A stretch of 64,000 bases of DNA from a virus (lineage: Duplodnaviria > Caudoviricetes). Position 1 is the stretch's first letter. Each line of letters begins with the position of its first letter. The stretch spans positions 2,401 through 66,400 of IMG/VR virus record IMGVR_UViG_2671180037_000003; one strand, 5' to 3'. Below the pieces are notes generated by a model that saw only the letters and a program-made list of their open reading frames with translations, did not search any database and was not told where the DNA came from. Shown piece by piece: positions 52,222 through 54,251 of the stretch. A program made the position numbers and the translations under genes.

Positions 52222-53192
52222 CCGAGCACAACATCATCAGCTACAGCGGCGGAAAGGACAGCACAGCCATGCTGCTGCTCGCTCTGGAGCGAGAAACTCC
52301 CAACCTGCAGGTGGTCTTCGCCGACACCGGAAACGAGCACCCGTCCACCTACGAATACGTGCGCTATGTCGAGCAAGCCACCGGCGTACCTATCCGCTGG
52401 ATCAGGGCGGACTTCACACAGCAGATCGAAGGGCGCCGGCAGATGATGCGAAACGTCATCGCTGGCACGCACAAGAATCAAGGCCGCTATGAGTGGACGC
52501 CTGCTATCGCTCATCGAGCGCTGGAGATCCTGCGGCCAACAGGTAATCCCTTCCTGGACATGTGCCTCGTACATGGGCGGTTCCCTTCCACAAAGGTGGC
52601 CTTCTGCAGCAAGGAGTTAAAGCGGGACCAGCTCACCAAACAGGTCCACCTTCCGCTGCTGGACGCAGGCGACGACGTCCAGTCCTGGCAGAGCGTCCGA
52701 TCAGACGAAGGAGGTAAGCGGCACCTGCTGACTGCCACCGAACTCTCGATGACGCGCCCGAACGGCGCCGAGCTGTGGAGCTTCCGCCCGATCCTGGCCT
52801 GGAAAGCCGAGGACTGTTTCAAGATGCACCGCAAGCATGGCCTGAAGGCGAACCCACTCTATGCCCAAGGCATGAAGCGTGTCGGCTGCATGCCTTGCAT
52901 CAACGCTGGAAAGGACGAGCTGCTGGAGATCAGCAAGCGCTTCCCGGAGGAGTTGAAGCGCATCGCCGAATGGGAGCGAATCGTCTCGCTGGTCAGCAAG
53001 ACCAACGTTGGCACGTTCTTCCCTGCCTCGGACCTGGGTGCGACCTCAGCAGCAGACGCCGGAACCCTTACCCATGGGATCAACGCCCGGGTGGAGTGGG
53101 CAAAGACATCCCGCGGCGGCCGGCAGTACGACATGTTGCGCGTGGACAGCCCGGTAGAGCTTTGCACTTCGATTTACGGGCTGTGTGAGTGA
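52218..53192 (+). CDS. PAPS-reductase family protein
   Basis: [10 protein letters not shown]-loop, [22 protein letters not shown]. Confidence 0.9.
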
Positions 53193-53204
53193 AGGGGATT
53201 CTGC

Positions 53205-54251
53205 ATGCACGCCGCCTACTACAACGAACACGAACCCTACGCCGCGCAGTGGCTCCGCAACCTCATCGAGGCGGGCCACATCGCGCCCGGTGATGTCGAT
53301 GAACGCTCGATCGAGGATGTGCACCCTGATGATCTCAAGCCCTACACCCAGTGCCACTTCTTCGCCGGCATCGGCGTTTGGTCCCTCGCCCTTCGCCGCG
53401 CCGGCTGGCCAGATGATCGACCTGTTTGGACCGGTTCCTGTCCGTGCCAACCTTTCTCCACGGCAGGCGAAGGAGCTGGGTTTGATGACCCGCGCCATCT
53501 TTGGCCAGCGTTCGGTTGGCTCATCGGCAAGCGGCGTCCTCCAGTCGTTCTTGGAGAACAGGTTGCGAGCAAGGACGCAGAACCTTGGCTCGACCTTGTA
53601 CAAGCTGACGTGGAAGCCATGGGCTACGCCTTCGGGGCCATCCCGTTCCCGTCTTCGAGCGTCGGTGCTCCGCACATCCGGGACCGCCTGTTCTGGGTGG
53701 CCGACGCCGACAGCGGCGTTGGCCGACAAGGGCGTGCGCACGCTGGAAGGCGGGCTGCTGGAAGCCATGCGAAATCATGGTCCGGACTTGGCAGCTGCCG
53801 TGTGCCTGGCAGGATGGCCGACACCCCTTGCGCTAGACCACAACGCCAGCGCGGGCTCCGGACTGAGCTATCGGGATGTGCCGAGAGCTGCATCCCTTGC
53901 CGGCTGGCCAACTCCGATGGCGGGCACACCAGCGCAGCGCGGAAACAACATGGCCGGCAACTCGGACTTCACACGCAAGACCGAAGCGATATGCGGTCGG
54001 GCGATCAAGGGGCATGGCCTGAATCTGTCGTCGAACTGGTGCGGGCCAGCCCGGTTAACGGCCTCTGGGCAGATGCTGACTGGCTCTTCTGCCGGGATGG
54101 AAAGTGGCGGCCAGTTGAACCCGGCACATTCCCGCTGGCTGATGGGGCTCCCGCCCGAGTGGGACGACTGCGCGCCTACGGAAACGCCATCAATGCTGAA
54201 GCGGCAACGCAGTTCATAGCCGCGTACATGGAGTGCTATCCCGCAGTTTGA
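53205..54251 (+). CDS. C5-cytosine DNA methyltransferase (alpha frame)
   Basis: [39 protein letters not shown]. Confidence 0.9.
53413..54219 (+). CDS. nested alternative-frame polypeptide (putative methyltransferase beta subunit; start uncertain)
   Basis: +1 frame open 53185-54219 with three GWPTP repeats and motif IX-like [16 protein letters not shown]. Confidence 0.7.

Follow-up and report, generated by a model that had tools for sequence, protein, structure and literature searches.

A prophage C5 cytosine methyltransferase gene with two overlapping reading frames that probably encode a catalytic chain and a nested, modular partner chain

Introduction

M.EcoHK31I of E. coli, which recognises YGGCCR, is a C5 cytosine DNA methyltransferase and a partner in a restriction-modification (R-M) pair. 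As described in the portions of two reports available to us, it is made of two chains that are both required for activity, and its beta chain is encoded wholly within the alpha gene in another reading frame; alpha carries motifs I-VIII as well as X, along with a target-recognition domain (TRD) that is predicted, and beta is said to carry motif IX (PMC2836561, PMC3404938). M.AquI, another C5 methyltransferase of two polypeptides, is mentioned in the available part of the second report as being split within the variable region (PMC3404938). Multispecific C5 methyltransferases of Bacillus phages carry tandem recognition domains on one chain, and such arrays protect against many restriction systems, according to the part of PMC12707154 at hand. 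Here we analysed a gene located on a 64,000-nucleotide stretch of Caudoviricetes DNA, positions 2,401 to 66,400 of the IMG/VR record IMGVR_UViG_2671180037_000003 (hereafter the window), in which a second long frame is nested within that of a putative C5 methyltransferase.

An initial annotation, made from the letters of the window alone, had noticed two same-strand frames that both stay open over a shared ~1 kb, and the listing of open reading frames (ORFs) gave exactly the same coordinates, 53205..54251 (348 amino acids, aa) and 53185..54219 (344 aa). The former is the coding sequence of alpha, a putative C5 cytosine DNA methyltransferase catalytic chain. The latter, the +1 frame of alpha, contains the coding sequence of beta (53317..54219), which would have 300 aa if started from the ATG at 53317 and 296 aa if started from the ATG at 53329. 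All features described below are on the + strand. Beta lies wholly inside alpha, and the overlap of ~900 nt takes up nearly the whole gene. We consider it likely that this one prophage gene gives, from two overlapping frames, two proteins that together form a C5 cytosine DNA methyltransferase.

The locus resembles M.EcoHK31I in that a small chain is nested, in another frame, in the gene of the large chain, a layout that is conserved here. Unlike that member of an R-M pair, the window copy is part of a prophage, has other DNA-modification genes as neighbours and adjoins no recognised nuclease gene. The precedent had been invoked in the initial annotation, and the available parts of PMC2836561 and PMC3404938 describe it in the same terms. 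Like the alpha chain of M.EcoHK31I in those parts, alpha of the window carries motifs I-VIII and a putative motif X, assigned by eye and from a model helix. The predicted TRD of M.EcoHK31I is placed in the large chain (PMC3404938, part available), whereas in the present gene it is the nested frame, not alpha, in which selection acts on the variable region. The available parts of PMC2836561 and PMC3404938 do not mention, for M.EcoHK31I, tandem shuffled modules or the motif order II-III-I, both discussed below; the two systems were compared by description. Plasmids called M38 and C23 are named in the acknowledgements of PMC2836561 and may, as a guess, refer to chains of ~38 and ~23 kDa; alpha of the window (348 aa) would be ~38 kDa, and with few modules a beta would come down to about ~23 kDa.

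The locus differs from M.AquI, as far as the available part of its description goes, in that the large chain keeps the putative motif X and the gene of the small chain lies inside that of the large one, in a different frame. With the Bacillus phage enzymes (part of PMC12707154) it shares the arrangement of a phage-borne, putatively orphan cytosine methylase with tandem short units in the variable region (1-5 here). Unlike those single polypeptides, it has its modules in the beta frame and its catalytic motifs in the alpha frame, and the likeness is one of arrangement. Alpha shares catalytic motifs I, IV, VI and VIII, as well as the predicted fold of the large domain, with M.HhaI and PF00145, but motifs II-III appear to precede motif I and the small domain is not in the same chain.

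Results

Both frames remain open in related loci

The viral set comprised 84 rows, namely 80 viral-contig loci obtained with alpha as query, 3 phage loci and the window itself. The +1 frame was open over 259-400 aa in all 84 rows, as compared to just 39-125 aa for the +2 frame, and alpha was continuous in 82 rows, the exceptions being L001 and L078. The genome set, 80 independent bacterial loci fetched with a beta alignment as query, came from Pseudomonas, Acidovorax, Burkholderia, Massilia, Comamonas, Sphingomonas, Bradyrhizobium, Brucella, Yersinia and other genera. Both frames were intact in 78 of these 80 loci, and the remaining two, L104 and L116, had one early stop in alpha and an intact beta. 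Frequent +1-frame stops in homologues, which according to the initial annotation would speak against a nested chain, were thus not seen. The alpha stop lay near codon 58 in L104 and near codon 17 in L116, and L078 had a single late stop. In L001 (Pseudomonas phage PMG1) the first 37 residues of alpha were found in another frame, with the frame change near codon 30 (L001 positions 1500-1620). Alpha of L053 merely ended slightly early. The broken-alpha copies may reflect sequencing errors, decay, or use of beta without alpha.

Both frames were also open, over 307 and 271 aa, in Salmonella phage SI7, which has 57.6% GC over the alpha match. When 50,697 phage records were searched by blastn, 223 matched, and their hosts included Escherichia, Klebsiella, Rhodobacter, Salmonella, Burkholderia, Xanthomonas and Pseudomonas. 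A tblastn search with the module and C-terminal part of beta retrieved 218 phage records with the same host spectrum. The 164 loci examined are spread over Alpha-, Beta- and Gammaproteobacteria and their phages, and the layout was kept in nearly all of them.

No single-chain or non-nested relative was found among the best 120 and 150 matches of two big searches. Several candidates were rejected. The long beta-search matches P0152, P0253, P0264, P0206, P0133, P0199, P0183 and P0124, taken as possible single-chain forms, had no Pfam methylase domain. A Rhodoplanes plasmid match limited to alpha residues 1-170 turned out to be nested when the locus was read; a Citrobacter plasmid match of the same extent (L090) had no annotated coding sequence under it. 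Pseudomonas phage LPPA33, considered as a split form, proved to be a degraded remnant: positions 980-1640 of its locus, after a ParB-like ORF, hold a degraded copy with a beta-like 207-aa ORF devoid of WPTP and a C-terminal fragment only of alpha. On a plasmid of Rhodoplanes serenus (L089, 2583-4283) the beta frame has no stop and runs in frame into an N6_N4 methylase, forming an open frame of 566 aa, which may be a beta fusion or a missing stop before a gene with its own start.

Selection on the two frames

For the selection tests L001, L053 and L078 were dropped, leaving 81 sequences, 73 of them distinct. Alpha could be aligned over residues 1-172 and its last ~70 residues but not between, and the beta alignment showed a conserved N-terminal part, a variable array of GWPTP modules and a conserved C-terminus. 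We measured the third-position entropy at conserved four-fold-degenerate codons of alpha. Where the DNA encodes alpha only, entropy was high, 1.50 bits at 31 sites in residues 1-70 and 1.41 bits at 6 sites from residue 326 onward. It fell to 0.68 bits at 36 sites in residues 73-168, which lie over the conserved N-terminal part of beta (Mann-Whitney p 3.5e-7 vs alpha-only sites), and to 0.30 bits at 23 sites in residues 280-322, over the conserved C-terminal part (p 2.6e-10). Many of the invariant sites in the overlap carry A or T, the less used bases at alpha-only four-fold sites. Since the third position of alpha is the second position of beta, such frozen sites are the signature expected of a translated and constrained beta. 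The nested +1-frame polypeptide proposed in the initial annotation is thus supported by conserved openness together with suppressed synonymous variation of alpha under beta.

The variable region behaved differently. There the ratio of non-synonymous to synonymous differences per site (pN/pS) was 0.27 for the beta frame and 2.1 for the alpha frame, with beta lower in all 31 alignable pairs, and pooling within the 13 module types that had at least 3 distinct DNA copies each gave 0.21 for beta and 3.3 for alpha. The check for purifying selection that had been suggested for each frame hence came out in favour of beta in this region (0.21-0.27). Alpha had no stop in the variable region in any of the 73 sequences, while resampling the codons of beta synonymously leads one to expect 2.3 stops and, per sequence, a probability of 0.12 of staying open; the third frame of the same region had 4.34 real stops against 4.23 expected. 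Because the 73 sequences had been picked as intact alphas, the raw sets give a fairer stop count. In these, the alpha stops of the genome set (near codons 17 and 58) fell outside the variable region, and the viral set had only the late stop of L078. In the variable middle, alpha is only kept stop-free, and it is beta that is under purifying selection.

Alpha carries the catalytic motifs

Only 92 of the 348 residues of alpha, 75-166, matched Pfam DNA_methylase (PF00145; 42.1 bits, the cut-off being 22), and phrog_363 matched alpha end to end over residues 2-344 (E 3e-89). An alpha profile matched, over alpha 73-170, residues 73-174 of M.HhaI (E 3e-13), covering motifs IV, VI and VIII. With hhalign, alpha 50-171 aligned to residues 4-197 of a canonical profile built from the host's own C5 methylase with 83% probability, and motifs I, IV, VI and VIII were in register. 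Motif I is FFAGIGVWS (53358..53384, residues 52-60), aligned to canonical FAGCGG. Motif IV is GSCPCQPFS (53433..53459, residues 77-85) with the putative catalytic Cys81, aligned to the PCQ of M.HhaI and of the canonical enzyme of the host. Motifs VI-VIII (53553..53699) include GEQV at residues 117-120 and motif VIII at 155-165 (HIRDR), aligned to ENV and QxRxR of M.HhaI and the canonical family. F53, A54, G55 and G57 of motif I and C79, P80, C81, Q82 and P83 of motif IV were invariant in 71 sequences.

The order of motifs appears to depart from the canonical one. The initial annotation had read II/III-like segments ahead of motif I; we place such a segment at 53217..53300 (YYNE...LRNLI...GDVD, residues 5-32), the motif names being our reading. 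The order is not the canonical I-II-III-IV: only ~20 residues separate motifs I and IV of alpha, and in this interval hhalign placed nothing of alpha opposite the canonical II-III. Locally, alpha 8-22 matched best at canonical residues 29-44, the position of motif II (8 of 15 identical; weak, E 0.13). In the model obtained with AlphaFold2 (AF2), the N-terminus forms a strand (2-7), a helix (11-22) and a strand (29-32), with block-mean predicted local distance difference test (pLDDT) values of 87-96 over residues 1-50. Alignment and model together agree with the earlier reading and suggest that the S-adenosylmethionine-binding part of alpha is permuted, with II-III before I.

Motif VIII is followed by a linker (53718..54047, ~residues 172-281, ~110 aa) that is stop-free and unconserved as a protein sequence. 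It could not be aligned among homologues, in agreement with the initial annotation, which had taken the middle of this frame for low-complexity junk; its length varied from 62 to 162 aa in relatives, Gly, Arg and Ala made up 43% of it, and AF2 gave pLDDT below 50 for residues 175-281. No conserved target-recognising region or motif IX is present in alpha between VIII and X. The conserved C-terminal part (54048..54251) was modelled as a hairpin of strands 292-295 and 301-304 and a confident helix (318-344) carrying YGNAIN (54177-54194). This sequence is invariant or near-invariant and was assigned by eye as motif X; the piece had no Pfam match, and hhalign gave E 0.073. The whole model (predicted template modelling score 0.62) was confident for residues 1-175, and the top Foldseek matches were M.HhaI, M.HaeIII, DNMT1 and DNMT2 over ~170 columns. 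Alignments and model indicate that alpha comprises a complete large domain and, in the usual place of the small domain, a spacer.

Beta is a nested chain with exchangeable WPTP modules

Beta matched phrog_1008 (E 3e-41) and phrog_31772 (E 2e-49), both families being named DNA methyltransferase, and had no sequence match in Pfam, NCBIfam or PDB. Relatives were numerous: 7806 of 8000 scored candidates matched in a search of the protein collection, and a beta profile retrieved 17489 cluster representatives at E<=0.001. In relatives, the beta frame is stopped at a median of 61 nt past the start of alpha, and beta cannot therefore use that start. The putative internal start region of the window (53310..53331) holds GAGG followed by ATG 53317 and ATG 53329. 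A beta-frame ATG occurred at alpha codons 38/39 in 53 and at codons 42/43 in 34 of the 73 sequences, and at either place in 64. Asp38 of alpha was encoded by GAT in 54 of 73, and most other conserved Asp codons were mostly GAC. A Shine-Dalgarno-like core lay 4-13 nt upstream of at least one such ATG in 56 of the 64 sequences, the background being 14.5% of positions. The first ~30 residues of beta are rich in Ser, Pro and Thr, and over this stretch alpha shows hardly any constraint at its synonymous sites, which becomes strong only from ~53418.

The conserved N-terminal part of beta (ANLS...LTWK...LRAS..RTS, 53446..53694) overlaps alpha motifs IV-VIII and was modelled by AF2 as a helix and a hairpin with pLDDT of ~70-77. 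The conserved C-terminal part (PARLTASG..., 54046..54219) has invariant or near-invariant columns. As the initial annotation had pointed out, a motif-IX-like stretch is encoded in the +1 frame at 54115-54162; the resemblance, L-N-P....R-W-L-M-G-L-P..W, was judged by eye, and the pattern is nearly invariant among relatives.

Between these parts lie three GWPTP modules: module 1 at 53695..53811 (39 aa, type t1), module 2 at 53812..53901 (30 aa, type t25) and module 3 at 53902..54051 (50 aa, of the terminal type t12). As read originally, each of the three WPTP sequences opens with a Trp codon, at 53698, 53815 and 53905. At 53694-53700 the sequence TGGGTGG contains two overlapping TGG codons, one for the Trp of alpha motif VIII and the other for the first-module Trp of beta, so that the end of the last catalytic motif of alpha and the start of the module array of beta share seven bases.

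We compared the modules of 193 beta proteins (73 from the loci and 120 best matches), of which 163 could be parsed, the rest being without the two anchor patterns. These had 507 modules, 1-5 each, with a median length of 39 aa; the variable module number that had been predicted was thus found. Clustering at 65% identity and 85% coverage gave 112 module types and 142 architectures among the 163 proteins, that of the window being t1-t25-t12; it replaced an earlier single-linkage clustering at 45% identity, which had lumped 376 of the 507 modules. Type t1 accounted for 107 of 507 modules, stood first in 89 instances and co-occurred with 66 other types. Some types had a preferred place: t1 tended to be first and t5, t9 and t12 last, t12 being last in 9 of 9. 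The pN/pS was 0.19 in the beta frame and 3.4 in the alpha frame within t1, and 0.30 and 2.3, respectively, within t12. The modules are thus exchanged combinatorially, in line with the swappable units of the initial annotation. Each may read a target of its own, or together they may form a single recognition surface; t1 being near-constant, at least one unit may be structural.

Genomic neighbourhood

The locus is a prophage, with an anti-repressor, a helicase and an integrase near the methylase gene, which is single-copy in its 4.69-Mb genome. The GC content of the region is 62-66%. The 5' neighbours are an N6_N4 methylase gene (50962..52221, Pfam E 4e-48) and a gene similar to 3'-phosphoadenosine 5'-phosphosulfate (PAPS) reductases (52218..53192), which matched phrog_424 (E 3e-66) and, in PADLOC, SspD (E 1e-20) and also BrxP. 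These two genes stand head to tail with a 4-nt overlap, and alpha starts 13 nt past the second. No nuclease adjoining the methylase gene was recognised with Pfam, PHROG or PADLOC or on looking through the neighbourhood, and a scan for promoters and terminators gave nothing within the gene on the + strand.

Directly 3' of the methylase gene is a low-GC island (54250-55650) with 43-50% GC as compared to 60-70% around it. It holds an ORF of 391 aa (54427..55602) with an HExxH motif and weak matches only, to Peptidase_U49 (E 0.027) and to Lit in PADLOC (E 0.00097 over 26 residues). From its sequence, the product may be a prophage-borne exclusion protease (moron).

Discussion

Most likely, the locus encodes an obligate two-chain enzyme similar in kind to M.EcoHK31I, in which the nested chain would recognise the target. 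Alpha would be translated from 53205 and beta by internal initiation at 53317 or 53329. The N-terminal part of beta, overprinted on alpha motifs IV-VIII, and its C-terminus would dock on alpha, and beta would thereby supply what alpha is missing, i.e. a docking part, the array of ~40-aa GWPTP modules as the target-recognising region, and a motif-IX-like C-terminus. The modules of beta would read the DNA, and alpha would flip and methylate the cytosine. The alpha spacer would be a mere out-of-frame reading of the beta modules, in which selection bars stops so that motif X stays attached. Such an enzyme could serve as an orphan phage-borne methylase that shields phage DNA from restriction. We infer the association of the chains from the complementarity of their parts and the M.EcoHK31I analogy; the specificity conferred by beta and the orphan protective role are likewise put forward as inferred. 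Alpha has neither a conserved recognition region nor a conserved motif IX, yet its catalytic motifs are strongly constrained, and it should therefore need a DNA-recognition partner.

Several results weigh against this reading. In the N-terminal overlap pairwise pN/pS was 0.52 for alpha and 0.77 for beta, which makes alpha look the more constrained, although pairwise pN/pS is confounded in overlapping frames. The loci are related, and counts of them are not counts of independent events. Alpha was broken in 4 of the 164 rows (L001, L078, L104 and L116), and beta, where read through (L104 and L116), was intact. Modelled alone by AF2, beta folded poorly (mean pLDDT 55.9); a Foldseek search with this model gave 0 PDB matches at E<=0.001 and chance-level ones above, and a search of the ESM Atlas returned nothing usable. 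As regards motif IX, the C-terminal pieces of beta had no Pfam match even at E<=10, and the beta profile had no match among PDB sequences. Whole and cut alignments of beta reached a probability of just 0.2-0.3% with hhalign against the canonical C5 family; the canonical alignment, having been built from the host's own enzyme, is of low diversity (57-77% identity to the first row), which makes this a weak negative. The functional reading is at its weakest in taking the C-terminus of beta for motif IX, a likeness seen only by eye.

Some of these results would suit a beta that is translated but is no methyltransferase subunit, for instance an independent DNA-binding or counter-defence protein, with alpha working alone or with a host factor. 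Beta has no detectable similarity, in sequence or structure, to the small domains of methyltransferases, and it survives intact in the two read-through loci among the four with broken alpha. An independent beta, however, leaves a catalytically constrained alpha without a recognition part. The variable part of beta, moreover, sits exactly at the canonical TRD place, the L-x-P...W-L-M-G-L-P pattern typical of motif IX can be made out by eye at the C-terminus of beta, and the one characterised nested system, M.EcoHK31I, requires both chains (PMC2836561, PMC3404938, parts available). We regard this explanation as improbable.

Less probable still, to the point of being very doubtful, is a single polypeptide made through two programmed frameshifts, +1 after motif VIII and -1 before motif X, which would restore a canonical I-VIII/TRD/IX/X enzyme with no separate beta. 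The order of parts on the DNA is indeed the canonical one, with VIII in alpha, the modules and the IX-like end in beta and X in alpha, and the first WPTP begins exactly where alpha motif VIII ends (53694-53700). But the beta frame is constrained from ~53418, ~280 nt upstream of any frameshift site, and over 54048-54170 alpha is conserved as a protein and beta is conserved too, so the same bases must be read in both frames. The internal ATG, conserved along with a Shine-Dalgarno-like core, also speaks against frameshifting, and alpha stays stop-free throughout the module region, something that a ribosome changing frame would not require. Inspection of the window sequence revealed no slippery motif at the junction. 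Lastly, a +1 frame left open by chance and untranslated, its motifs a by-product of alpha conservation, might have been thought of at 62-66% GC, where long spurious ORFs are common (cf. the antisense ORFs here), but it is excluded, as stops occur in the +2 frame of the same DNA about as often as expected, the +1 frame is open at 57.6% GC too, purifying selection in the variable region acts on the beta frame and not on alpha, and synonymous sites of alpha are frozen only under the beta overlap.

The gene is annotated inconsistently. Both frames are annotated in Xanthomonas phage PhiXhv-28 and in Escherichia phage K1ind3, where beta is called 'Mte8-like', a label for which a single passing mention was located (in the part of PMC5582158 available). 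The initial annotation had held that standard annotation would miss the nested chain; this applies to the many records that annotate one frame, but not to those that annotate both. In the prophage of E. coli Ec1117 (L088, 2363-3532), the RefSeq annotation by the Prokaryotic Genome Annotation Pipeline (PGAP) gives two pseudogene pieces in the same frame, 'missing C-terminus' and 'missing N-terminus', probably for want of any match to the unconserved linker. The literature searched, which took in neither REBASE nor subscription journals, contained no account of dual coding in this phage family. The gene belongs to a known but obscure kind and is very widespread. The annotation problem is systematic: gene callers choose either frame, the two frames sit in separate PHROG families that are both named DNA methyltransferase, and an apparently intact copy is marked as pseudogene fragments by PGAP.

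More tentatively, and with rather more doubt than confidence, we suggest that the locus may represent a very large, mostly unrecognised phage and prophage family of obligatorily two-chain C5 methyltransferases with a specificity subunit overprinted over nearly its full length. The exchanged 30-50-aa GWPTP modules of such enzymes would each be a target unit of their own, several sequences would be methylated, module exchange would retarget the enzyme, and the catalytic chain would put up with this because its own frame has, at the matching place, a spacer with no demand on its sequence other than the avoidance of stops. If true, the textbook placement of the TRD in the large chain, given for M.EcoHK31I, would be wrong for enzymes of this sort.

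Long same-strand overlaps with two functional products are rare in double-stranded DNA phages and bacteria. Here three regimes can be read from the sequences of one gene, namely true dual constraint, one frame under selection with the other kept open, and single coding, making it a natural system for the study of two proteins that evolve on one stretch of DNA. The likely placement of the specificity determinant in the nested chain would also bear on the prediction of phage methylation targets and on anti-restriction.

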